Origin: Desulfobulbaceae bacterium
Lineage (GTDB): Bacteria; Desulfobacterota; Desulfobulbia; Desulfobulbales; Desulfobulbaceae
Direction of reading: 5' to 3'
NCBI GenBank assembly: GCA_033549385.1
Contig: JAWSUG010000002.1
Coordinates: 21,849 to 45,848, forward strand
DNA length: 24,000 nucleotides
The position numbers were made by a program, and so were the translations under genes. The notes below the pieces were generated by a model. That model ran no database searches. It was not told where the DNA came from and was given only the letters and a program-made list of their open reading frames with translations. Every line of letters starts with the position of its first letter. Within the stretch, counting starts at the first letter, position 1. Below are positions 974-15,560 of this stretch, piece by piece.

Positions 974-1783
974 ATGAATAGAAATTTACGACTTGATGAA
1001 CATTGTATCCTCAAAGAACCCTATTATCTGCAGACAGGCGAGGAGTTGACTTTGGCGGAAGCGGCGTACCACACCAGGCTGCCGCTGCTGCTTAAGGGCC
1101 CGACAGGCTGCGGCAAGACGAGATTTATGCAGTACCTTGCCTGGAAACTGAAGCGGCCGCTTATCACTGTTTCCTGTCATGATGATCTGTCAACCTCCGA
1201 CCTGGTCGGGCGCTACCTGATCAGGGCAGGTGAGGCGGTATGGATGGACGGACCCCTGACAATGGCGGTCAGGGCGGGAGCCATCTGTTACCTGGATGAA
1301 ATCGTCGAGGCCCGGAAGGATACAACCGTGGTTATTCACCCCCTGGCGGATGACCGCCGGGAACTGCCTATTGAAAAGAAAGGGGAACTCGTTGTTGCGC
1401 CGCCGGAATTCATGCTGGCTGTTTCCTATAACCCCGGGTACCAGAGTATCCTCAAGGATCTTAAACCATCGACCAGGCAACGTTTTGTAGCCCTCTCCTT
1501 TGATTATCCCGATGCGGAAAATGAAGCAATAATAGTTGCCCGGGAAGGGGAAGTTGCCATTGATCTTGCCCGTTCCCTGGTCAAGCTGGGAGCAATGACC
1601 AGGGAACTCAAGGATTCGGGCCTGCCTGAAGGGGCCAGCACCAGGATTCTTATTCAGGCCGGCAGGCTCACCGGCTGCGGCATCGATATCCAGACCGCCT
1701 GCCATAACGCCATTGCACTGGCATTGACCGATGACAGGGAATTGCTGGAATCAATTGACGAGATGATCAGTTCCATCTTTTGA
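974..1783 (+). CDS. cbbQ: MoxR-class AAA+ ATPase of the CbbQ/NorQ/NirQ type
   Basis: 269 aa. Walker A GPTGCGKT (nt 1097-1120), Walker B ICYLDEIVEA, then SYNPGYQ...L.PSTRQRF, typical of CbbQ/NorQ. SD-like ACGGGGA lies upstream of the ATG. A vWA partner starts 7 nt downstream. Confidence 0.85.
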   Translation: MNRNLRLDEHCILKEPYYLQTGEELTLAEAAYHTRLPLLLKGPTGCGKTRFMQYLAWKLKRPLITVSCHDDLSTSDLVGRYLIRAGEAVWMDGPLTMAVRAGAICYLDEIVEARKDTTVVIHPLADDRRELPIEKKGELVVAPPEFMLAVSYNPGYQSILKDLKPSTRQRFVALSFDYPDAENEAIIVAREGEVAIDLARSLVKLGAMTRELKDSGLPEGASTRILIQAGRLTGCGIDIQTACHNAIALALTDDRELLESIDEMISSIF

Positions 1784-1790
1784 AAACGAT

Positions 1791-4088
1791 ATGAATCTGC
1801 AAACACTGAAAACGGAGTTTCTGTCTCTTGTGGCACCTGATATGCCCAATGAGTGGGATGTTGAAGAGGCGGTCGAAAAACTTGTCCGCCTGGATGAAAC
1901 CAGGCGCCGATCAGTCCTGGGCCAGGTGCAGGTCATCTGGCCCGTGAGTCACTCACTGTGTTTCGATTATCTCAAGATGGCTGCTTCGGCACTTGACTGC
2001 ATTGAACTCAACTCTCTGTCCGAATGGGTCAACAGGACTCTGGACCAGTACGAACAGAATGGTCTGCGGGCGGCCCAGCGATTCATGGCCGACGTGGAAG
2101 AAAATTTCCTCTGCACCCTGCGGGGTGAAACCGGCCTTCGGTTCGGGAAGGCGGAGAGGAGACTGGCTGTCTATCTCAGGGGACTCAGCGGCCGCCCTCT
2201 TGACCTTGTCGCATCCGAAAAGGCCTATACGGACACTGCAACGATATTCGTTCCTGAGGAGATCACCTGGTCCCGCAATGCGGCGGATAATTTTTTCCTG
2301 TATAAACTTATTACCACGTATCAGTGGGCGTTCATTGCCGGATCAACCTTTACCGTGTTCCCCGGGGGTGTGGAAGATTCAGGCGGGGAAGAGGGCGAAC
2401 GGCTGTGGCTGCAGGATTTTTTGCACTCCTTTGCCAATCCGGGCATGGCCGGCGACCTCTATCATTTTCTGGAAACCGTCCGCATCACTGTCTTTCTTGA
2501 AAAAGAATTGCCGGGGCTGATGCGGAGAAAAAAAGAGATACTTCCCCAGGCATTGCTTCCGCAGAGGGAACCAAAGGAAAAAAAAGGTCTTCTCGACCGT
2601 CTGCAGCGCTTATGGCTGGCAGGGTTTCAATCGGATGAGGAACATCCGGACCTTGAGCCATTCGCCGGGCTGATAAACAATCATGAACAGAATGCCGGCA
2701 GCGCCATGGATTCCGTTGCCGCCACCCGGCAATTATATTCACTGTTCAGGGGGGAAGAAAAAACCCACCACCATTCGGCACCTTTTCTGTTTCAGGGAGT
2801 GATGCAGCTCGAGGCAGTCCGCCAGGCCCGCAGGCAGAGAATAGAGGAAGCCAGGCAGTATTTCATCGACGCCCTGGCAACAAGGATTCTCCAGCCGCGC
2901 GGCAGAAAGCAGCAGGAAGGGACGGAAAGTACGGATGGATCCGACAACAGCGATGCAGCGGGTACCGAGGAGCAGGGGATTGCGTTCGTCGTCAATGCAA
3001 AAGGTGAAGAGAACAAGGGGCGGGCGGAAAACACTCTGCTGCTGACGATCAATAATGAAGAGGTTGAACCGGGCAGCGAACTCGAGCAGGCGGCAGCCGA
3101 TGTCGTGCAGGAACTTGGCTATCTCCCCGAGAAGTATGTTTCCAGTGCAGCGGGAAAAGCCGGCAGCGGATATGCTTCCTTCAGCACCCTGGAACCGGAG
3201 ACCGGTCAGGAAATAATTGCGCCGGTGACATATGACGAATGGGACTACAGGCGCGGCGATTTCAGGAAAAACTGGTGCAGCCTGCGGGAAAAGGAAATTC
3301 CCCTCAGCCGCTCGAATTTTCTCGAGGAAACCCTGGATAAATACCACGGCCGGATTATCCGCCTCCGCTACCAGTTCGAGATGATGCGCAACCAAGAACG
3401 TTTTGTCCGCCGCCAGCGTGACGGCGAGGATATCGACCTGGATGCGGTGATCGAGTCCATGGCCGACAGCCGTGCCGGTCTGCCCCCTTCGGATCGGTTA
3501 TTCATCCGCCTCAGGAGGGATGAGCGGGATATTGCCGTCCTGTTTCTGGTCGATATGTCCAATTCAACACAGGGATGGGTGGGCAAGGTTATCAAGGAAT
3601 CACTGGTCCTCCTGTGCGAGGCGCTGGAGGTGGTCGGCGACCGGTATGCCATTTACGGATTTTCCGGTATGCGGCGGCTGCGCAGTGAATTTTTTCATAT
3701 CAAACACATGGATGAAATGTATGACGATTCGGTCAAGGAGCGGATCGGCAGCATCGCACCCCGTGAATACACCCGCATGGGGCCTGCCATCCGCCATGCC
3801 GCGTCCCTTCTTAAGGATATTGATTCCCGGATCAAGCTGCTGATCACCCTCTCGGACGGCAAACCGGAGGATTACGATGATTACAAGGGGGAATACGCCA
3901 TAGAAGATACCCGCCATGCTCTTGTCGAGGCAAAACTGGCGGATATCCATCCTTTCTGCATTACCATTGACCGGCAGGCGCGTGATTACATCGAGCATAT
4001 GTATGGTAACGTGAATTATATCCAGATCGATGATGCCGGCAAACTTCCCTTGAAAATGCCGGAGATATACCGGATATTGACCCGTTGA
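1791..4088 (+). CDS. cbbO: CbbO/NorD-type von Willebrand factor A (vWA) domain protein, partner of the preceding AAA+ ATPase
   Basis: 765 aa. The C-terminal vWA domain has the MIDAS motif DMSNS (nt 3552-3566, VLFLVDMSNSTQGW) and a downstream TLSDGKPEDYD. A long helical N-terminal region and an acidic low-complexity linker (GRKQQEGTESTDGSDNSDAAGTEEQG) precede it. Only 7 nt separate it from the cbbQ stop. Confidence 0.8.
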   Translation: MNLQTLKTEFLSLVAPDMPNEWDVEEAVEKLVRLDETRRRSVLGQVQVIWPVSHSLCFDYLKMAASALDCIELNSLSEWVNRTLDQYEQNGLRAAQRFMADVEENFLCTLRGETGLRFGKAERRLAVYLRGLSGRPLDLVASEKAYTDTATIFVPEEITWSRNAADNFFLYKLITTYQWAFIAGSTFTVFPGGVEDSGGEEGERLWLQDFLHSFANPGMAGDLYHFLETVRITVFLEKELPGLMRRKKEILPQALLPQREPKEKKGLLDRLQRLWLAGFQSDEEHPDLEPFAGLINNHEQNAGSAMDSVAATRQLYSLFRGEEKTHHHSAPFLFQGVMQLEAVRQARRQRIEEARQYFIDALATRILQPRGRKQQEGTESTDGSDNSDAAGTEEQGIAFVVNAKGEENKGRAENTLLLTINNEEVEPGSELEQAAADVVQELGYLPEKYVSSAAGKAGSGYASFSTLEPETGQEIIAPVTYDEWDYRRGDFRKNWCSLREKEIPLSRSNFLEETLDKYHGRIIRLRYQFEMMRNQERFVRRQRDGEDIDLDAVIESMADSRAGLPPSDRLFIRLRRDERDIAVLFLVDMSNSTQGWVGKVIKESLVLLCEALEVVGDRYAIYGFSGMRRLRSEFFHIKHMDEMYDDSVKERIGSIAPREYTRMGPAIRHAASLLKDIDSRIKLLITLSDGKPEDYDDYKGEYAIEDTRHALVEAKLADIHPFCITIDRQARDYIEHMYGNVNYIQIDDAGKLPLKMPEIYRILTR

Positions 4089-4912: not shown

Positions 4913-5725
4913 ATGAAAAAAAGCGAGTACCTGATGGAGAATGATGACGAGTCATTCCGTCTCGAGATAAAAATTGACGAAAAAAGTATCAAAAGACAGG
5001 CTGAGTGGGCCGGTATCAAACCTGGGATGAGGGTTGCCGATTTGGGGTGCGGTTCGGGAAAGACAACTTCAATCCTGCACGAACTGGTGCAGCCGGATGG
5101 CAGTGTTGTCGGTGTCGACGGGTCAAGTGAGCGCCTCGCTTATGCCCGTAAAAAATACGGTGGAAACGGCATAGAATATATTGCAGGCAACCTGAACGAG
5201 CCCCTTGATCATCATGGAAGCTTTGATTTTATATGGTGCCGGTTTGTACTTGAATATGCCCGGGCCGGAAGTTTCAATATGGTCCGGAATTTTACCGCAA
5301 GTTTAAAACCGGGTGGTATTCTCTGTTTGGTAGATCTCGACCATAATCCCCTTAATCATTACGGCGCTTCCGAGCATCTTGAAAGAACGTTTTCGAAAAT
5401 TATGCAGGAACTGGAAGAAAAATTTGATTTTGATCCGTATATCGGCAGAAAGCTGTACTCTTTTCTCTACGACCTGGGGTACCAGGATATTGATGTCTGC
5501 GTTGAAAACAACAGGGTCACTTTCGGCAGGATTGATCCGGTGGAAGTATATAATATTATGAAAAAAATTGAAATCGTCCCTAAAAAGATCAATTTTCGTT
5601 TCGAGGAATTTCCAGGCGGATATGAAGAATTTTATCGCGAGGCTGTGGATTTTTTTTTACATCCACGGAGGTTTTCCTATACGCCGCTTATCCTGTGCAG
5701 AGGGAAGAAGCCCCTGGAAGGTTAG
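4913..5725 (+). CDS. Class I SAM-dependent methyltransferase
   Basis: 270 aa. Motif I VADLGCGSGKTT, post-I acidic VGVDGS, and later LKPGGILCLVD. No substrate-specific features recognised. Confidence 0.8.
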   Translation: MKKSEYLMENDDESFRLEIKIDEKSIKRQAEWAGIKPGMRVADLGCGSGKTTSILHELVQPDGSVVGVDGSSERLAYARKKYGGNGIEYIAGNLNEPLDHHGSFDFIWCRFVLEYARAGSFNMVRNFTASLKPGGILCLVDLDHNPLNHYGASEHLERTFSKIMQELEEKFDFDPYIGRKLYSFLYDLGYQDIDVCVENNRVTFGRIDPVEVYNIMKKIEIVPKKINFRFEEFPGGYEEFYREAVDFFLHPRRFSYTPLILCRGKKPLEG

Positions 5726-6438: not shown

Positions 6439-7737
6439 CTAGAATGTATAGGCCGCTGATACAGCAAACAGATGACTGGAGATATCCGAAAACTCGCCGT
6501 TTATCGTGTCGTTCACCACAGTGCGGTCATCTTTGTCGGCATAGAGGTATGCTGCGCCAAAGGACCAATTTGACGTACAGGAATACCTGAAACCGACGGA
6601 GCCGAACCAGGCATCCGAATCAGGCAGGTCAAAAGACAGGGTTGCTTCGGGTACCGGATTCCCGTCGATACCGACGCCGGCCATCAATGTAAGTGCCTCA
6701 CTCCAGTAGTATGAGATGCCGAGTCTGAAGGCATCGACATCATCCCAGTCTTTTAGAACCGGGTCATCAAAGGCTGCGATCAGCACCGGATGCCTCAGGT
6801 TCCGGTCATAATTTATATCGATTTCCTCATAATCCGACCAGAATGTCCGGTCATAAACAAACTCCACCGTTGCTTTTGAAAACGTGTATGAAGCGGCCAG
6901 GGCAAGCACCGCAGGAACAGGAATCGAAACTGAACCGCCGCCTCGATAAATTGTTTCCGGCATGAGGTGATTCGGGAAGCTTTCAGATGCCCTCAGGTTT
7001 CCATCTCCTTCCATATCAAGGTCGACTTTGGATCGATAGGTGGCGGCAAGACTGATTTTCTCGTCCGGCCTGAAAGAGAGAGCCAGATTATAGCCGAATT
7101 CCGTGGCGTCACCTTCCAGATCACGGGAGATGAAAAGCAATTCATCGTCCGGCGGCATGCCACCGCCAAGGCCGCCTGCTGGTATTGCCGTCACCATTCC
7201 CAGGCTTTTAACAGTCGCATCACTGTAAAGAAGCCTGACACCCGCGGCGGCTGAAAACTTTGATCCGAATCTGTAGGAAACAGTGGGATTGGCTTCAAAA
7301 ACGGTCATGCTGAATTCTTCGGCAAAGGTCCTGGGAAAGGGATCCTGCCATCGTTTTGCCAGCCCGGCCGGAAAAACCACAGCAAATCCAAATCTGAAGT
7401 TGTTGTAATCCGGAGAGACAACATGAAGATTGGGAACAATGAAATTTTCATCATCTGATTCACCATTGAACAGTGGTGTCCGGTTGTCGATATAGGTTAT
7501 GCTTGGCAGCCGAATATAGGTCAGCCCTCCTTCAATGGCTGTGGCATCGGGCATCCAGGACATGTTTGCCGGATTAAAATAGGCAGCGTCCGCATGCAGA
7601 GCGTTTGCAATGTATGCACTGCCCAAAGCCGTTGAATTAAGCGACTGCTCCGGAATTCGATACCCGGATGCAAAAGCCGAGGAAGCGAGAAACATTACCC
7701 CAATGATAGCAATGGGCACACTTCTTTTATGCATCAT
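6439..7737 (-). CDS. Outer-membrane hydrophobic-compound transport channel, OMPP1/FadL/TodX family
   Basis: 432 aa. Signal peptide MMHKRSVPIAIIGVMFLASSAFA. N-terminal hatch-like SGYRIPEQSLNSTALGSAYIA..DA.A.YFNPA. Alternating beta-strand pattern throughout and a C-terminal aromatic residue (..AAYTF). SD AAGGGGGG lies upstream. Confidence 0.85.
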   Translation of the reverse strand: MMHKRSVPIAIIGVMFLASSAFASGYRIPEQSLNSTALGSAYIANALHADAAYFNPANMSWMPDATAIEGGLTYIRLPSITYIDNRTPLFNGESDDENFIVPNLHVVSPDYNNFRFGFAVVFPAGLAKRWQDPFPRTFAEEFSMTVFEANPTVSYRFGSKFSAAAGVRLLYSDATVKSLGMVTAIPAGGLGGGMPPDDELLFISRDLEGDATEFGYNLALSFRPDEKISLAATYRSKVDLDMEGDGNLRASESFPNHLMPETIYRGGGSVSIPVPAVLALAASYTFSKATVEFVYDRTFWSDYEEIDINYDRNLRHPVLIAAFDDPVLKDWDDVDAFRLGISYYWSEALTLMAGVGIDGNPVPEATLSFDLPDSDAWFGSVGFRYSCTSNWSFGAAYLYADKDDRTVVNDTINGEFSDISSHLFAVSAAYTF

Positions 7738-7758: not shown

Positions 7759-10299
7759 TTAGTTATCTTCTGATACTGTTACTCTCCGAGTGCGAGTAAC
7801 AGGGTTATCCAAAATCTGCCTGATCCTGTTAGCCAACGATACCGGCAACAGAGGTTTGTTGACCAGAACATATGAATCCAGATCACCCAGATGGGCAATG
7901 ACATTATCGGTATAGCCGGACATGAGTATAGCCTTTAGATCAGGCTGTTTTTCTTTTAATTTATCCAGCAGTTCTTTCCCATCCATCCCTGGCATGATAA
8001 CATCGCTGAGCACCATATCAATTTTGCCCTTCACATCCCCATAGATTTTCAGCGCTTCTATTCCATCGGAGGCTTCGAGTAATGTATACCCGAGGGGCTT
8101 CAGAGTCTCCAGTATCAGGCTGCGGATTGATTCATCATCATCAACCACCAGAATTGTTTCCGTTCCTCTGGCCATCACCAGGTTATCATTCATTTCCTGC
8201 TCTGAAAGTTCCCCGCCCGTAATCGGAAAATATATTTTGAAGCTGGTCCCATGTCCCTCTTCACTGTATACATGAATGTGACCGTGATGCTGTTTGACTA
8301 TGCCGTAAACTGTGGCAAGACCAAGTCCGGTACCCTTGCCCACTTCCTTGGTGGTAAAAAAAGGTTCAAATATTTTTTCCCGCACTTCAGGAGCCATTCC
8401 AATGCCGGTATCGGTGACGCTCAGCATTGAATATAGACCGGGTGTCACGTCACTGCGTGTATTGGCATATTTTTCATCCAGAAAAATATCACCGGTTTCA
8501 ATGGTTAACCTGCCGCCGTTCGGCATAGCGTCTCTGGCATTGACCACAAGGTTCATCAGAATTTGACCTATCTGGCTGGGATCAGCAGATATATTACCGA
8601 CAGCATTGGATAAATAAGTCTTTATGATGATGTTTTCATCAATCAACCTGGAAAGCATCTTGTTCATGTCTTCCACTATGAGGTTCAGGTTGGTTACTTT
8701 CATTTCCAGAACCTGCTTGCGGCTGAAGGCAAGAAGCTGCTGGGTAAGGGCGGATGCCTTAATCCCGGCATGATGGATGCTGTCAACCATTTTCCAGATC
8801 GGGTCGTCCTGGGGAATCTGCAGGGAAAGTATCTGGCTGTATCCCAGAATGGTGGTCAGGATATTGTTGAAATCATGTGCAACTCCGCCGGCAAGATTAC
8901 CGACGGCTTCCATTTTCTGAATCTGACGGAGATGAGATTCGAGATTAATGTTATGTAGCCGAGAACCTATTTGCGATGCAACGCCCATGAGCAAATTCAT
9001 GTCCCTCTGGAGTAAAGGTCTCTTGCTTACAATATTATCGACAGCGAGTATGCCCAGAGGTTCGTTTTCATATAAAATCGGGCAGCAGATCAGTGATTTG
9101 ACCCCCATCCTTAGGGCAAACTCATAGCTGCGTTCGGAGAGATCATTTTTAAGATCTTTAATATTATTAAGAAGAATAGGTTTCTTGTTCTGAAATGAGA
9201 GATAGAAAATTCCTTTGGAATCTTGATTGTCGAGGTGAAAAGACAGATTTTCCAAGATTTCTTTTTGGGATTCCTCATATCCATAACCGGCCTGAAAATT
9301 AAGACTTGTTTTATCCTGATTTGCCAGCATGATCAGTATACGGTCATAATCAAGACGCTTATGCAATATTCGGATTATTTCATTAAACAAATCTTCAATT
9401 TCATATTGTTTTGCCAGAGTTTGACCAATCTCATTGATGAGTAAAGAATTTACATAGTTTATATCTATTTGCTCAATAAGTTCATCTGAAGAATTCCTTA
9501 AGAGATCAATGGTATCTAATAAATTTTTCGTTTCAATATTTTTTAGGAACCAGTTTGTGATCAATATTATTGTTACTGTAATTAAAGACAGAGAAACAAT
9601 AGTCATTAAAGATAAATAATTGTGGTAAAAATAATTCACTGGTAGAAAAAAAATGACCAACAAACCAAACAGTGCAACAGTTAAATTCCTTAAATTTTTC
9701 AAAACAGTAACAGGTGACTTTGGCCAGGAAACCAGATACCGGCAGACTTTGTCCCCTTTAAAGATGCATTCAGGGTGGCTTATTTCAGAAGGTTTAAGTT
9801 TAAAATAGGTTGACATTGCCTCCCAGTAACCCATTCTGTTTTCACATTGAAAGGACTCTTCTCTGGTCCCGGGATTTGGGGTAACTGTAATTTCAACTTT
9901 ATTAGAACTTAAAACTTTTGCTTCATAATAAGACGACTTGGAAATTTTATTTACATAATAACCCATTAAATTATAAAATTTAACGGGACTCATTAATCCA
10001 ATCGTGAATCTTCCAAATATGTTATATGCTTCAGGCGATGAGGAAAAACGCCCTGCTTCGCGGGCAATTTTTTGATTGCTTGTTAATTCTACCAACTTTT
10101 CATAAAAGCGATTTATTTGTCTTTGGGAGAAAAAATGACCTTCATCTTCCACCTGATAAGGTTCCATTTCTGCATAAGCAAGTAGTTCATCAATGTTGAT
10201 ATAATTGTACTTTTTTTTAATTAACTTCAGGTACAAATCAATCCCCCTGCTTCCGTACAGAGGTCTATTTTCATCGTAAAGATCAGGCATTGAAAACAA
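7759..10299 (-). CDS. Hybrid sensor histidine kinase/response regulator: V4R-like N-terminal domain - 2 TM - GAF - HisKA - HATPase_c - REC
   Basis: 846 aa. H-box [17 protein letters not shown] (His475, codon 8877-8875). N box [11 protein letters not shown] boxes DTGIGM and GKGTGLGL. The receiver has ILVVDDDES...[14 protein letters not shown] (Asp766, codon 8004-8002) and a KP motif. Two hydrophobic helices lie at aa ~205-250, and a GAF-like region at aa ~295-447. The N-terminal ~190 aa end in [14 protein letters not shown]...[18 protein letters not shown]. The track start is TTG 10299, abutting the upstream stop; the first ATG is at 10290. Confidence 0.9.
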
Positions 10300-12387
10300 T
10301 TATTTAACTTGTTTTATTTTAATCTGTTTTTTTGGTAATGTAAGGGATTCCATGTACTTAAGATACTCGCCAATGTACTCAAGATTGAGTATTCCTAATA
10401 AGTACGTTTTTTCAGAAGAAAAATCATACAGCTCGGCATAAGATTTCGGATAAAATAATACAGGGATGTTATCATACTCATAGTACTCTGCAAGTTGAAC
10501 AAGTGCATAATTCAGGATCTCTTTGTTGATAGTGGGGGGATCTAACACAAAAATTTGAATACAATTTGTCAGGTTTGACATATTAATTCCAAAATCTGAA
10601 ATGTTCACAATCAGAACAGCAACTAATTCATCGTCTGTTTTGATTGAAAACAGCTTCCGTTTTCTTTTAAAACCTGCTTTGCTGTAATCATCACAGATAG
10701 TGCCTCCCATGCAATTTGCTTCCGGGGTGAGATCAAGAGCTTTGATCAACAAGCCCCCTGAGAACTCATCATACCAATATTTAAGAATTTCAAGATCATC
10801 TGGATCTGTATCACTTATGTTCAATGCGGAGAAGGGAGGTGCTGGTTTTCCATTCGGTTGAAAATGAAAATATGCAAATTCATCAATTGAACTTTTTTGT
10901 GAGTCCCCCATGGAACCAGTCGCGGATGAACCGAAAAGTCTTTTTGAAAAGCGGTTATTGGGCCTGTAATAACCAGCAAGAAAATCCATTTTAGCAGGCG
11001 GCAAAGAATGAAGCTCGTTAATATGTTGGAGTATGTGCTCCAGTACAACTAATCCAGCCTTATGTTTTGTCGATTTAATTGCTGCAAGATGATGCAAAAG
11101 CCATGTTTTTTCATAAAATCTGTATATGGATATATGGCCATATATTTTCCCTTTGTCCTGGTAAATGATATGTTGTGCTATCTCAGGTTTTTCGTTGTAT
11201 AATTTTTTGTATGTATCAATAAATATTTCTTTTTGGTCAGCTATTTGTAGATATTTTTCAGGGTAGACAAACCCTGAATCGAAAAAGAAATCCCATAGAG
11301 AATCAAGATCAACATTTGAAGTGCAGATGCATGAGTGCTTGTTTTTTGCCTGATGTATCAGTGAAGATAATTTTATATGATCAGAAAGATTTATATCCAA
11401 TATAACAAAACCGCATGTAACCACATCATCTTGGGTAATACGGTATAAGACTTGAGCTTTGCACTTTAAGGTAAAGCCTTGAATAAAATCGATTCCCAGG
11501 TCAGTTATTATCAATCCAGGTAACAGGACCGAATTTTCTGCATCTTCTTCTATGGAAAAACCGAGTCCTGATATATCTTTCAAACCCAGTATTATTTTTT
11601 TTTGTGTTAAGGGATGATGAAATATCAAATTAGGTAAGGGAGACAGTACCAGTCTTTCTGTTCGAAATGTTTTCGACTTCATCCTGCTGATGTTGTTTTT
11701 TACATTTTTTAAAACAAGTGTTATTCCCGACGTATATTTTTCCTGGCGTATAATTGCGCACTCACCAAAAAAAACGAAATCTCCTTTATTGTTAATTAAT
11801 TGAACATTGACGTGATTGTCGGGATTCATTTCAAGTTGCAGTTGCTGAGAATCTAAAGCATATTTTACAGTAAAGGATTCAGCACAGAAATTTATTAAAG
11901 TACCCTTAACAAGATATCCATCCTGGCTTATTTGAGCGGTAATACCATTACATAAGTATCTTTTAAATCCTCTGAATGTTCTTTCATAGCAGTATTCCGG
12001 TAGTCCCAAGTAAACGCCTTTCCTGGATATTTCAAGGAGCTTCGCTTCCACACAAACATTGCTGAGTCCGTCGGTGAAAGAAAAATAGGTAAATGTAAAT
12101 TGCTTGAGTTTTTTTTCTGCGTCGAAATGCTCAGACCATATGCACAGCAAAAAGTTGTCATTGCATATCTGGGGTTTGGCCAACAGTGTAATAGGATGAC
12201 CGTACTTCTTGTGTTTGAAGTTAAGGGTAATGTCACCGTCTTTGAAATTGATCCGGTTCAAATAGTTGACCAATCGTGCTTGAGTGACTTTTTTGCTGTT
12301 CTTATCATTCTCTAAGGAAGCAGTCTCCTCAGTAAGATGGAGTGAAGATTTAAGCCCTGCACCTTTCATTTCGTCAGCCTCTTGCAC
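10300..12387 (-). CDS. Uncharacterised 695-aa protein with two PilZ-like beta-barrel modules and a ~340-aa unassigned C-terminal module
   Basis: Long uninterrupted ORF in an AT-rich tract. Module 1 (aa ~133-228) has R139GFKR143 (RxxxR), then N166FCAES where D/NxSxxG is expected. Module 2 (aa ~238-346) has R242TER245, then a perfect D271ISGLG276 (nt 11577-11560). The C-terminal part (LWDFFFDSGFVYPEKY...HHLAAIKSTKHKAGLVVLEHIL...) is unassigned. The track start is GTG 12387. ATG 12369, preceded by AAGAGG at 8-nt spacing, is the more likely start. Confidence 0.75.
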   Translation of the reverse strand: MQEADEMKGAGLKSSLHLTEETASLENDKNSKKVTQARLVNYLNRINFKDGDITLNFKHKKYGHPITLLAKPQICNDNFLLCIWSEHFDAEKKLKQFTFTYFSFTDGLSNVCVEAKLLEISRKGVYLGLPEYCYERTFRGFKRYLCNGITAQISQDGYLVKGTLINFCAESFTVKYALDSQQLQLEMNPDNHVNVQLINNKGDFVFFGECAIIRQEKYTSGITLVLKNVKNNISRMKSKTFRTERLVLSPLPNLIFHHPLTQKKIILGLKDISGLGFSIEEDAENSVLLPGLIITDLGIDFIQGFTLKCKAQVLYRITQDDVVTCGFVILDINLSDHIKLSSLIHQAKNKHSCICTSNVDLDSLWDFFFDSGFVYPEKYLQIADQKEIFIDTYKKLYNEKPEIAQHIIYQDKGKIYGHISIYRFYEKTWLLHHLAAIKSTKHKAGLVVLEHILQHINELHSLPPAKMDFLAGYYRPNNRFSKRLFGSSATGSMGDSQKSSIDEFAYFHFQPNGKPAPPFSALNISDTDPDDLEILKYWYDEFSGGLLIKALDLTPEANCMGGTICDDYSKAGFKRKRKLFSIKTDDELVAVLIVNISDFGINMSNLTNCIQIFVLDPPTINKEILNYALVQLAEYYEYDNIPVLFYPKSYAELYDFSSEKTYLLGILNLEYIGEYLKYMESLTLPKKQIKIKQVK

Positions 12388-12725
12388 TTTTTAGTGCAGC
12401 ATCATTTTTGATAGAAATAAAAAATCTTTTTGATTTCAGTATTATTTCAAGATCATACTTTATGCAAACTAAGCATTAGGGGGATTTTTTTAATAAAGTA
12501 TCTGAAATTATTTATACTTACATCTTATTAAGAACATTGCAAAATATCAAATTAAAAAAGAAATAAAAAACGTTTGATCTGTGTAAATTCAATGACTTGT
12601 TAACTTTTTGCGCATTGTAAAAAATTAACAAATTATATAACTTGAAAGGGTGTGGAAAGGAACAGGACTCTGTTGGATTTTACATCAATATTACAAAGGG
12701 ATATCAACACTCTCCGGAAAAGTAA

Positions 12726-12754
12726 AAGATAAAACTTATTATGACTTTTATCTT
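12726..12754 (-). terminator. AT-rich hairpin downstream of mobB (weak intrinsic terminator candidate)
   Basis: Perfect 9-bp inverted repeat AAGATAAAA (12726-12734) / TTTTATCTT (12746-12754) with an 11-nt loop, 14 nt after the mobB stop. On the minus strand it is followed by TTACTTTTCC. Confidence 0.35.
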
Positions 12755-12767
12755 AACATTGCAGATT

Positions 12768-13421
12768 TTAATCGACAATTTTGATCGTAATGTTGATTTC
12801 CCTGACATCATCCGTCTGTTTCAGTGATTTGATAAATCCATGGACTGTTCCTGCTAGCGCATCCTGCACAAAACCTTTCATCGGCACCTTTTTTCCGTTG
12901 ACCAGCAAGAGCGCTTTTTCTTCTCTGCCTTTTTTATCCTCAATAAATTTCCTGATGATAAAATCGGCAATCTCCCGACTTTCTTCAAGCCTGAAAACAT
13001 TGTCTCCGGAGAGCTGGCGGTCGGTAACCGTGGCAATGACGCCGGTCACCTGATCCCGCAGAAGTTCCGCATCACCGCGGATGACTTCAATTTTGCTGAT
13101 CTTGCGTTCATGCTTGAATCCTTCGCCGATAACGATGTCATAATCATAAAAAAAACGATAGACCAGGGCAGCAAGACTTAATTCCGGATTTATCGCAAAC
13201 AGAGCCATCTGGTCGGGAGCCATCAAAGTGACGGCGTCGGCACCAGCCTTGCGGTATATCCCGGTATCCGTGCCGGAGAGGTCAAATTCAATGCCGGTAT
13301 GTTTTGTCGACTTGATTACGGCAACACGCAGGCCCTTTTCTTTGAGATGAGCAACAACCTTGCTTGCCAGTGTTGTTTTTCCGGAATCATGCCACCCGAT
13401 GAAACTGACTATTGGAACCAT
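12768..13421 (-). CDS. mobB: Molybdopterin-guanine dinucleotide biosynthesis adapter protein MobB, with C-terminal extension
   Basis: 217 aa. The N-terminal IVSFIGWHDSGKTTLASKVVAHLKEKGLRVAVIKSTKH carries the MobB P-loop signature. About 50 extra C-terminal residues relative to the ~170-aa E. coli protein. SD GGAAGGGG lies upstream. Confidence 0.85.
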   Translation of the reverse strand: MVPIVSFIGWHDSGKTTLASKVVAHLKEKGLRVAVIKSTKHTGIEFDLSGTDTGIYRKAGADAVTLMAPDQMALFAINPELSLAALVYRFFYDYDIVIGEGFKHERKISKIEVIRGDAELLRDQVTGVIATVTDRQLSGDNVFRLEESREIADFIIRKFIEDKKGREEKALLLVNGKKVPMKGFVQDALAGTVHGFIKSLKQTDDVREINITIKIVD

Positions 13422-14687: not shown

Positions 14688-15560
14688 TCAGCAGGAGTCC
14701 GCCTGTTTTCGCACATTGGAAGTAAAGAGCCTGTTGCTGATAAGGGTCATGCCTATGGCAAACAGGGCCGCGGCCAGGCCGAGCAGGACATTGAAATAAG
14801 CGGGTGCCGCCAGAGCCAGCCGTATCAGCAGCGTTGACAGGGCAAAACCCGAATTGCGGAAAACAGCATAGTAGGACGGCTGGAAACATTGAGCCACGAG
14901 AACCAGCAGTATATCGGTAATAATCAGCAGGGTATAGAAATCATGAAAAAAATCCGAATGAGGGATATTCATGACCGTAAGATAGATGGTTTTTACCCCC
15001 ATATACAGGAAAATGCCCAGCAGGATCAGGGCAATCCCTTTTTTTGCCGCCACAAAACTGAAGAGATCCCCGTGTCGGCCCCCTTCATCATGCCCCCTGC
15101 TCTGAATTTTGTAGTAGTAGCCCAGCAGGGCAAAAATGAGAAGGGCGCCGAAACCGTCGGAAACTATGCGGAGGATTGCCTCGTTATTGCCTGTAAAAGT
15201 GATCGGCTCCGGCAGGTACGATAACTCCTTGAAGGCATTGCGGATGAGGATAAGGGAAAGGATTTCAAACTGTTTGCCGACCGATTTGGAAAATGAACAG
15301 GGCAGGGTGAAGATCAGGCTGACAACTTCCAGAATCAGGACGACGGTGAATGCGGCCTGGATGGCAAAGAAGTGATTTCCGGGAACCAGCCCTGATACCG
15401 GTTCCGGCAGAAAACCCTTGCGCTTGAGTTCAATGACCAGCAGGCTGCCCAGAAAAAGGAGGACCAGCAGGAAGGAAATTTTTCGGTGTATTTTCTCATG
15501 TTCCCAGTAATAGTGAAGGGGATCAAAGATGAAGGTGCATTTTTCAAAGATAAAATTCAT
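14688..15560 (-). CDS. Polytopic inner-membrane protein of unknown function
   Basis: 290 aa with about 6-7 hydrophobic helices (for example FLLVLLFLGSLLVI, AFTVVLILEVVSLIF, FGALLIFALLGYYY, IALILLGIFLYMG, LLIITDILLVLVA, LGLAAALFAIGMTLI). SD GGGGGA lies upstream. No family recognised. Confidence 0.65.
   Translation of the reverse strand: MNFIFEKCTFIFDPLHYYWEHEKIHRKISFLLVLLFLGSLLVIELKRKGFLPEPVSGLVPGNHFFAIQAAFTVVLILEVVSLIFTLPCSFSKSVGKQFEILSLILIRNAFKELSYLPEPITFTGNNEAILRIVSDGFGALLIFALLGYYYKIQSRGHDEGGRHGDLFSFVAAKKGIALILLGIFLYMGVKTIYLTVMNIPHSDFFHDFYTLLIITDILLVLVAQCFQPSYYAVFRNSGFALSTLLIRLALAAPAYFNVLLGLAAALFAIGMTLISNRLFTSNVRKQADSC

Follow-up and report, generated by a model that had tools for sequence, protein, structure and literature searches.

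A candidate c-di-GMP-gated acyltransferase with three PilZ-type barrels and a predicted tandem GNAT module, encoded in a conserved gene cassette

To our knowledge, cyclic di-GMP (c-di-GMP) effectors that are themselves enzymes are rare, and Myxococcus xanthus PixB is the only fusion of PilZ domains with an acetyltransferase that has been studied. In the mycobacterial cAMP-regulated protein acetyltransferases from the superfamily of GCN5-related N-acetyltransferases (GNAT), a cyclic-nucleotide-binding domain located N-terminal to the GNAT domain gates acyl transfer allosterically, and in N-myristoyltransferase one GNAT half binds the acyl donor while the other contributes the acceptor site. PixB (MXAN_2604), a protein with two PilZ domains plus a GNAT domain, binds c-di-GMP although both PilZ domains lack the motif serine; its function requires the acetyltransferase domain, and the proposed logic is that c-di-GMP stimulates acyltransferase activity (PMC8316039). 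PilZ control of a GNAT enzyme is therefore already known as a concept from this one protein. The xPilZ-PilZ architecture of YcgR-type receptors has been described, including the xPilZ domains, which lack the terminal helix and commonly have lost binding, and PA2989, which binds c-di-GMP with the D/N of its motif substituted (bioRxiv 10.1101/814665). Here we describe a protein in which three PilZ-type barrels precede a predicted tandem GNAT module. It is encoded in a 24,000-nucleotide stretch of DNA from a Desulfobulbaceae bacterium (GenBank assembly GCA_033549385.1, contig JAWSUG010000002.1, positions 21,849 to 45,848), referred to as the window. On a narrow balance, we read the protein as a c-di-GMP-gated acyltransferase, namely a cytoplasmic receptor fused to an enzyme-like module. 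This reading is based on the predicted folds, the selection on the ligand residues, an active-site-like residue cluster, the linkage to HD-GYP genes and the PixB precedent.

Three PilZ-type barrels and their motifs

The AlphaFold2 model, built on a 60-sequence alignment of homologues, is confident (predicted local distance difference test, pLDDT, 87.4; predicted TM-score, pTM, 0.78), and residues 1–23 are disordered. Residue numbers are those of the 695-residue open reading frame (ORF) that begins at a GTG codon. The model comprises five modules, residues 31–130, 131–232, 240–348, 350–515 and 516–690. Foldseek searches of the Protein Data Bank (PDB) with this model returned two classes of matches, tandem GNAT enzymes and two-barrel c-di-GMP receptors. 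The receptors are PlzA (7mie), YcgR (5y6f), PP4397 (3kyf), VCA0042/PlzD, MrkH and MotI, with E-values of 2e-7 to 3e-6; the alignments span 252 columns for PlzA and 212–227 columns for the others. The secondary-structure layout of the N-terminal half agrees with consecutive YcgR-like barrels that carry an Arg motif in the linker. In the model, a YcgR-like array makes up the N-terminal half but runs to three barrels, with Arg-rich linkers preceding barrels 2 and 3. Sequence comparisons were less informative: PDB sequence searches with the protein or with the 60-sequence family profile yielded nothing useful, an NCBIfam scan of the protein returned nothing relevant, and hhalign detected no significant internal similarity, either between the two GNAT halves or between the N-terminal barrel and the PilZ modules.

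The first barrel, residues 31–130, is preceded by a helix and conserves N41, N44, F48, H59, P72, C75, W84, D106 and G107. It contains no c-di-GMP motif, and hhalign finds no profile similarity to PilZ in it. The other two barrels, termed modules 1 and 2, are those that carry the motifs.

Module 2 is assigned as a PilZ domain on family evidence. The Pfam PilZ model (PF07238) matches 38 of 60 family members at E ≤ 0.01, and in the seven members scanned individually the match falls on module 2 with 25–31 bits, above the gathering score of 22.5 bits. An ad hoc canonical PilZ profile was assembled from the C-terminal PilZ domains that some of the partner proteins described below possess and from the N-terminal PilZ domain of a sister family; hhalign aligned module 2 with this profile over 85 columns (P = 3.4e-5). 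In the AlphaFold2 model, strands extend over residues 253–332 and are followed by a helix at 334–348, with pLDDT above 90. The module lacks RxxxR and has instead R242-T-E-R245 (RxxR), followed by the expected h-x-h (L-V-L, where h is hydrophobic). R242 and R245 occur with the RxxR spacing in 83 of 85 independent loci. The second motif, [D/N]hSxxG, is intact: D271, S273 and G276 are kept in 56–59 of the 60 clusters, and by residue class D/N is present in 60/60, Ser in 59/60 and Gly in 59/60.

Among eight proteins scanned individually at E ≤ 0.1, the Pfam PilZ match never fell on module 1. The hhalign comparison with the canonical PilZ profile reached only P = 2.2e-3 over 41 columns, with both motifs in register, and the comparison between the two modules aligned DFSAxSF with DISGSGF. 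The RxxxR motif, R139/R143, is kept in 58–59 of 60 clusters and in 84 of 85 loci. The second motif departs from the canonical [D/N]hSxxG: with few exceptions the family-wide consensus reads D-h-[S/N]-x-x-S, the hydrophobic position (F167) is conserved, and a final Gly is present in only 2 of 85 loci. The version N-x-C-x-x-S, present in the window, is confined to the window's own clade (the window, L001, L009 and L010). As in xPilZ domains, module 1 has no terminal helix.

In the DNA, R139-G-F-K-R143 is encoded by aga gga ttt aaa aga (nt 11973–11959), N166-F-C-A-E-S171 by aat ttc tgt gct gaa tcc (nt 11892–11875), R242-T-E-R245 by cga aca gaa aga (nt 11664–11653) and D271-I-S-G-L-G276 by gat ata tca gga ctc ggt (nt 11577–11560). 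Bare strings of this kind are non-specific. RxxxR and [DN]xSxxG each occur three times in the whole protein, twice within the C-terminal half, against 0.39 and 0.31 per protein, respectively, in shuffles of it; an Arg motif followed 18–32 residues later by [DN]xSxxG was seen in 0.4% of shuffles. Because such short strings are unspecific alone, the case rests on structure and conservation, and the motifs gain meaning from their location at the entrance of predicted β-barrels and from their near-invariance across the family.

A sequence-only reading of this DNA had reported the ORF and the four motif strings, with spacings of 23 and 26 residues within the two modules, and all of these are correct as given. 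The ORF is present at 10300..12387 (−), as that reading had it, with the GTG at 12387 listed as start by the ORF-listing program; the GTG start and the 695-residue length probably do not hold. The true start is probably M7 (ATG at nt 12369), giving a product of 689 residues, because AAGAGG lies 8 nt 5' of this ATG, at least 90% of homologues have M7 and NCBI lists the identical protein with 689 residues. That reading's assignment of both β-rich modules as PilZ-like is borne out by module 2, which passes the Pfam threshold in homologues, and by the match of the N-terminal part to YcgR, MrkH, PlzA and MotI; it counted two N-terminal modules and overlooked the third barrel, residues 31–130. It had further proposed that the modules hold complementary half-sites, which might mean loss of binding, a composite inter-domain site or a different ligand. 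The strings are there and they are odd against the canonical signature, but they are not peculiar to this protein, and the framing over-reads one sequence: relatives at the 85 loci keep RxxR with DxSxxG and RxxxR with the relaxed D-h-[S/N]-x-x-S, so that the oddity is a family rule and does not imply loss of binding. Judged by their near-invariance in 60 clusters and 85 loci, the half-signatures are stable, selected, family-wide variants and not products of decay. A composite inter-domain site or an altered ligand may still account for them.

The same conservation bears on an alternative in which the PilZ-like modules have lost c-di-GMP binding, or bind a different ligand, and serve only as structural or interaction domains of a constitutive acyltransferase, their motifs being historical. 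Both modules deviate from the canonical RxxxR and [D/N]xSxxG pair, the local clade has undergone a further Ser to Cys change, and the common loss of binding by xPilZ domains (10.1101/814665) would fit. However, retention of the Arg pairs and of DxSxxG in 83–84 of 85 loci from several phyla argues for selection on these residues, the dominant neighbour of the gene encodes a c-di-GMP phosphodiesterase, sometimes with a PilZ domain of its own, and relaxed motifs do bind in PixB (PMC8316039) and PA2989 (10.1101/814665). We regard this alternative as unlikely.

The predicted tandem GNAT module

Among the tandem GNAT enzymes, whose best matches range from E = 6e-10 to 1e-6, the closest Foldseek match is Legionella VipF (6wqb; E = 5.9e-10, probability 1.0). 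It is followed, also at probability 1.0, by the Clostridium acetobutylicum glucosamine N-acetyltransferase GlmA (5kf1; E = 3.7e-8), N-myristoyltransferase (E = 4.8e-7) and 2wpw (E = 7e-7). The class includes the clavulanate-pathway tandem GNAT and a Kribbella GNAT, and the tandem-GNAT alignments extend over approximately 300–370 columns. In the AlphaFold2 model, both halves follow the order β1-α1-α2-β2-4-α3-β5-α4-β6. From these matches to tandem GNAT enzymes, the C-terminal half is a tandem GNAT fold at the level of the predicted structure. The sequence-only reading had tentatively named a tandem acyltransferase-like fold for residues 350–695, which was right at the fold level, and had added that the region matched nothing nameable; a known superfamily fold has now been found, and that no characterised family matches still stands. 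The Foldseek search of an AlphaFold2 model, run here on the whole chain, was a check which that reading had itself suggested, and it placed the β-rich modules with PilZ receptors and the C-terminal half with tandem GNATs.

Half 1 (residues 350–515) is the most conserved part of the protein. Its near-invariant residues comprise L364, W365, F367–F369, G372, Y375, P376, K378 and Y379; H418, Y425, W429, H432/H433, A435/A436 and G445; and Y473, R475, N478, F480, F485/G486, S500, D502 and Y506. The His-His pair on β4 is kept even in a distant sister family (P0115, with LLHHLAL). The GNAT loops were compared on the basis of sequence and predicted secondary structure. In half 1, the stretch following β5, P-N-N-R-F-x-N-R-V-F-G-G (N478...F485-G486), resembles GNAT motif B. 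Half 2 lacks a Gly-rich β4-α3 loop and conserves the loop S-D-x-G-L-N-M-S-D-L-T-N at residues 597–608. From these conservation patterns, H418, H433, S500, D502 and Y506, together with the motif-B-like N478-x-x-x-x-x-x-F-G, form a candidate active site in half 1. By analogy with N-myristoyltransferase, half 1 would bind the acyl donor and half 2 would contribute the acceptor site.

The module might still be a non-catalytic tandem-GNAT scaffold, in which case the protein would be a c-di-GMP receptor and adaptor that binds the H-NOX-like/GAF partner described below, regulates it in step with the level of c-di-GMP and transfers no acyl group. No acetyltransferase-family sequence model matches the module, its pyrophosphate-binding loop is non-canonical, and many PilZ proteins, YcgR and MotI among them, are generally known to work by protein–protein contact. 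Yet the near-invariant His/Ser/Asp/Tyr cluster of half 1 and the conserved loop of half 2 resemble an active or ligand site, not a surface patch, and PixB needs its acetyltransferase domain (PMC8316039). We consider a scaffold role rather unlikely. It is very improbable that the module is a transferase whose donor is not acyl-CoA but, say, the aminoacyl-tRNA used by Fem/MprF-type enzymes. Such enzymes are generally known to have the tandem GNAT architecture too, and a canonical CoA-binding loop is missing here, but the top 50 structural matches are CoA-dependent (VipF, GlmA, N-myristoyltransferase, the clavulanate-pathway tandem GNAT and the Kribbella GNAT) and include no Fem/MprF enzyme.

The gene cassette and its distribution

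The ATG of the partner gene lies 9 nt downstream of the TAA stop of the PilZ-GNAT gene, on the same strand (Table 1). Its product comprises a conserved N-domain of 195 residues, two hydrophobic, putatively transmembrane helices, a coiled linker, and GAF, HisKA, HATPase and REC domains in this order. A hidden Markov model of the N-domain was run against 84 distinct loci, of which 77 were informative. The partner is directly downstream on the same strand, often overlapping, at 54 of the 77, and nearby in another orientation at 7. Among the 54 full-length partners, the output is an HD-GYP module in 42 and a histidine kinase with receiver in 12. The HD-GYP partners (HD_5/HD) have intact HD and GYP motifs in their consensus, and ten partners, mainly from Geobacteraceae, add a canonical PilZ domain with RxxxR and DxSxxG. 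The sequence-only reading had overlooked this conserved cassette, which links the protein to c-di-GMP turnover. The tight and often overlapping coupling suggests a complex and so favours the scaffold alternative; against it, the identical residues persist at 21 loci that have no partner nearby. That every conserved residue is retained there speaks for an independent role of the protein, one in which the methyltransferase encoded nearby probably takes part.

Table 1 Coordinates of the features in the window.
Feature	Position (nt)	Strand	Basis or remark
CDS of the PilZ/tandem-GNAT protein	10300..12369	−	probable start M7; TAA stop at 10302-10300
N-terminal helix and β-barrel (xPilZ-like), residues 31–130	11998..12297	−	AlphaFold2 model, pLDDT ~90
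Module 1, PilZ-like barrel without C-terminal helix, residues 131–232	11692..11997	−	model, hhalign, motifs
Module 2, canonical-type PilZ barrel with C-terminal helix, residues 240–348	11344..11670	−	Pfam, hhalign, motifs
First GNAT-fold half, residues 350–515	10843..11340	−	model, Foldseek, conservation; candidate acyl-CoA-binding half
Second GNAT-fold half, residues 516–690	10318..10842	−	model, Foldseek, conservation; candidate acceptor-binding half
Partner gene, H-NOX-like/GAF sensor with hybrid histidine kinase	7759..10290	−	Pfam, model, hidden Markov model
FadL/TodX-type outer-membrane channel for hydrophobic compounds	6439..7737	−	third gene of apparent operon
Class I S-adenosylmethionine (SAM)-dependent methyltransferase, convergent	4913..5725	+	generic methyltransferase models; orthologue search

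The partner N-domain (residues 1–195, window 9706–10290 (−)) was modelled at pLDDT 88. The top 40 Foldseek matches in the PDB are all H-NOX proteins (E ~ 2e-6, TM-score 0.55–0.72), with weaker matches to the V4R domains of PoxR and MopR and to Bet3. Pfam recognizes the domain weakly, as Arabinose_bd in eight members (best E 4.6e-7) and V4R in one, and HNOB is not among the families reported for the 54 partners. A Cys3His tetrad, C149, H172, C175 and C183, is invariant in 50–54 partners; its H-x2-C-x7-C aligns with the same string of the Shewanella oneidensis H-NOX 4u9b in an independent but weak profile match, and in that protein and other H-NOX proteins the tetrad binds zinc. In the 50 aligned partners, only H52 (nearly invariant) and H172 (invariant) are His residues conserved at 90% or more; no conserved His occurs in helices 91–116, where a proximal haem ligand was sought, and YxSxR was not found either. 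Haem binding by this domain is doubtful on these sequence grounds, because no conserved His occupies the proximal-ligand position. The domain appears to be an undescribed sensor-domain family, and its signal may be redox, a hydrophobic ligand or another stimulus. It shares the H-NOX fold and H-x2-C-x7-C with the bacterial H-NOX proteins that are coupled to c-di-GMP enzymes or kinases, but differs from them in its missing proximal His and HNOB match, and in being fused to its output in one chain through two transmembrane helices and a GAF domain.

An orthologue of the methyltransferase occurs in 69 of 74 informative loci from several phyla, with 400–500 bits in most. The gene nearly always runs convergently; it adjoins the partner gene or, at loci without a partner, the PilZ-GNAT gene, and every informative locus has at least one of the two neighbours. 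The protein matches only generic methyltransferase models, and its nearest solved relatives include juvenile-hormone-acid methyltransferases. At Desulfosarcina-type loci without a partner, a divergent M48-family peptidase gene lies upstream of the PilZ-GNAT gene, and the convergent methyltransferase gene and a gene for an S1-repeat protein lie downstream, as Pfam confirmed at L018 and L047. In the window, the FadL/TodX gene sits between the partner and the methyltransferase; it follows the partner gene by 21 nt, and its ribosome-binding site, AAGGGGGG, is strong. Among the loci with gene tables that were examined, L001, the closest Desulfobulbaceae relative, is the only one to have it within the cassette, and it is an addition specific to the window's Desulfobulbaceae clade.

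The family is large. A word-indexed search yielded 115 clusters of ~690 residues, and an exhaustive profile search with the C-terminal module yielded 1227 representatives (50% identity) at E ≤ 1e-3, including 406 at E ≤ 1e-30 and 469 weaker clusters with E between 1e-10 and 1e-3. Among the best 150 of the 1227, the full-length architecture recurs in most, the module lying at ~345–690; the others are three longer proteins (P0154, P0175 and P0199) and entries that are short or truncated. Two of the latter, P0154 and P0175, are ~1210 residues long and carry NERD (nuclease-related) and Ser/Thr protein kinase domains N-terminal to the PilZ/tandem-GNAT body. Relatives are encoded by at least 583 genomes of the GTDB species set, from several phyla, so that the survey of the C-terminal module which the sequence-only reading had recommended revealed a wide spread. 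The hosts, sulfate reducers among them, include Desulfobulbaceae, Desulfobacterales, Desulfosarcina, Geobacteraceae (with the cultured Geomonas limicola and G. silvestris), Syntrophobacter, Nitrospirota, Thermodesulfovibrionia, Planctomycetota (including the anammox Ca. Brocadia), Rokuibacteriota and Hippea. The family falls outside all Pfam and NCBIfam models, and its members are annotated at most as "hypothetical" or "PilZ". A contig binned as 'Thermoplasmatales archaeon SG8-52-3' (LSSG01000083.1, locus L029) carries a complete bacterial-type cassette of PilZ-GNAT, HD-GYP partner and methyltransferase genes, and has probably been mis-binned, being bacterial. P0115 and three relatives of ~695–742 residues make up a small sister family of high GC content, with a fully canonical N-terminal PilZ domain, a second PilZ domain that has RxxxR but D-V-G-E-A-G without the Ser, and a GNAT half that keeps LLHHLA; a homology search from P0115 returned four proteins, none of them from Myxococcus.

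The G+C content falls to 0.34–0.36 over window positions 9000–13000, against ~0.50–0.55 in the flanks. Within the dip lie the PilZ-GNAT gene with its 380-nt leader, the partner gene's 5' half and part of mobB. A recent local horizontal insertion is not supported as its origin, given the synteny with L001, the 62%-identical relative, and the milder dip there (0.42–0.48 against 0.55); since this dip lies at the syntenic place, low G+C has long characterised these genes. For the AT-rich leader, a c-di-GMP riboswitch was considered and rejected, as the sole match was a chance-level RsmY (E = 0.15). A role in anti-phage defence was likewise rejected, since PADLOC matched neither the protein nor the partner and the methyltransferase matches a generic methylase model only. 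Promoter and terminator scans gave counts not above shuffle expectation. Elsewhere in the window, positions 974–4088 (+) encode a CbbQ/NorQ-type AAA+ (MoxR-like) ATPase followed by a 765-residue protein with a weak C-terminal VWA match, a typical MoxR-VWA pair that is syntenic in L001. At 14688–15560 (−), an ORF of 290 residues without a Pfam match adjoins a fused MTHFR/DUF5981 gene, a position conserved in L001.

Proposed gated acyl transfer and comparison with described systems

The sequence, the fold assignments, the motif conservation and the gene linkage are what the analysis shows; for the c-di-GMP-gated acyltransferase that we favour, binding of the messenger, catalytic activity, the sense of its control and its substrate are inferences. 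The chain would run from the xPilZ barrel through the RxxxR linker, PilZ-like barrel 1, the RxxR linker and canonical PilZ barrel 2 to the tandem GNAT. c-di-GMP would bind, as in YcgR, at one or both Arg-rich inter-barrel linkers and at the [D/N]hSxxG-type strand of the next barrel, clamping the barrels and repositioning them against the adjacent GNAT half 1. This movement would switch on or off the transfer of an acyl group from acyl-CoA, bound by half 1, to an acceptor sitting in the cleft shared with half 2. The partner, usually through an HD-GYP phosphodiesterase output, would set local c-di-GMP, an output replaced here by the hybrid histidine kinase, and the convergent SAM methyltransferase probably acts on the same target or product.

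Several observations weigh against this reading. Neither PilZ-like module possesses the full canonical signature, and no tested precedent for RxxR in place of RxxxR was found in the literature. On this protein, the Pfam PilZ match (residues 269–344) scores 12.5 bits (E = 0.19), below the cut-off of 22.5 bits. The structural matches to tandem GNATs are moderate, with TM-scores of ~0.45–0.5 on the target and 10–15% identity, and no acetyltransferase-family match was obtained in Pfam or NCBIfam (E ≤ 1), in PDB sequence searches or with Pfam on 60 members. The β4-α3 loop of half 1, K-S-x-x-H-K-A-G445, differs from the canonical Q/RxxGxG/A. The partner is absent within 2.5–6 kb at 16 of the 77 informative loci, and in this genome it is a hybrid histidine kinase and not a phosphodiesterase.

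In a speculation that we hold to be distinctly unlikely, the cassette could also form a signalling circuit complete in itself and centred on a small, hydrophobic molecule. The c-di-GMP-gated tandem GNAT would N-acylate a substrate, and the SAM methyltransferase, among whose nearest solved relatives are carboxyl O-methyltransferases acting on lipid-like acids, would methylate it. A lipid-like signal would thereby be made or altered, much in the manner of the methyl-ester quorum signals of Ralstonia. The partner would sense this signal with its haem-less H-NOX/V4R-like domain and direct c-di-GMP degradation (HD-GYP) or relay phosphorylation, closing the feedback, and in this Desulfobulbaceae clade the FadL/TodX channel would move the molecule across the outer membrane.

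Under the gated-acyltransferase reading, the protein is a likely route from c-di-GMP to acylation, the target of which could be a protein or a metabolite. The family also provides a natural test of motif tolerance, with a PilZ signature that has drifted (RxxR; DhSxxS) and is still under selection, and the three-gene cassette of receptor-enzyme, H-NOX-like/GAF sensor and methyltransferase offers concrete partners and cultivable hosts (Geomonas).

With the YcgR-type receptors (YcgR, PlzD/VCA0042, PP4397, MrkH, MotI/DgrA and PlzA), the protein shares consecutive barrels, an Arg motif in the linker and a C-terminal PilZ domain with a terminal helix. It differs in having three barrels where they have two, with a pair of Arg-rich linkers, RxxxR and a relaxed second motif occurring in the middle barrel and RxxR in the last, and in being fused to an enzyme-like module, whereas the YcgR types are small stand-alone adaptors. 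With the tandem GNATs VipF, GlmA, N-myristoyltransferase and the clavulanate-pathway enzyme, it shares two GNAT folds per chain over ~300–350 residues; it is distinguished from them by the absence of the canonical Q/RxxGxG/A, by the conserved His-His on β4, by the PilZ fusion and by the lack of a sequence-profile match. The mycobacterial cAMP-regulated GNATs likewise place a second-messenger-binding domain N-terminal to the GNAT module, but this is a cAMP-binding cNMP domain and not a c-di-GMP/PilZ array, and their GNAT is single.

PixB resembles the protein in its two PilZ-type modules and C-terminal GNAT-fold module, with imperfect second motifs in both of its PilZ domains. The RxxxR motifs of PixB (R121 and R331) are ~210 residues apart, compared with ~100 here, and its acetyltransferase domain is recognized by standard models, whereas none match the double GNAT of ~345 residues in this family. 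In PixB the Ser of motif 2 is missing, whereas module 2 of the present protein combines a perfect DxSxxG with RxxR. The family further has three barrels at ~100-residue spacing and a much wider phylogenetic spread, and the cassette of H-NOX-like/HD-GYP and methyltransferase genes was found at loci of this family. What is new relative to PixB is thus the array of three barrels with the RxxR variant, the GNAT pair invisible to sequence models, the three-gene cassette and the wide spread.

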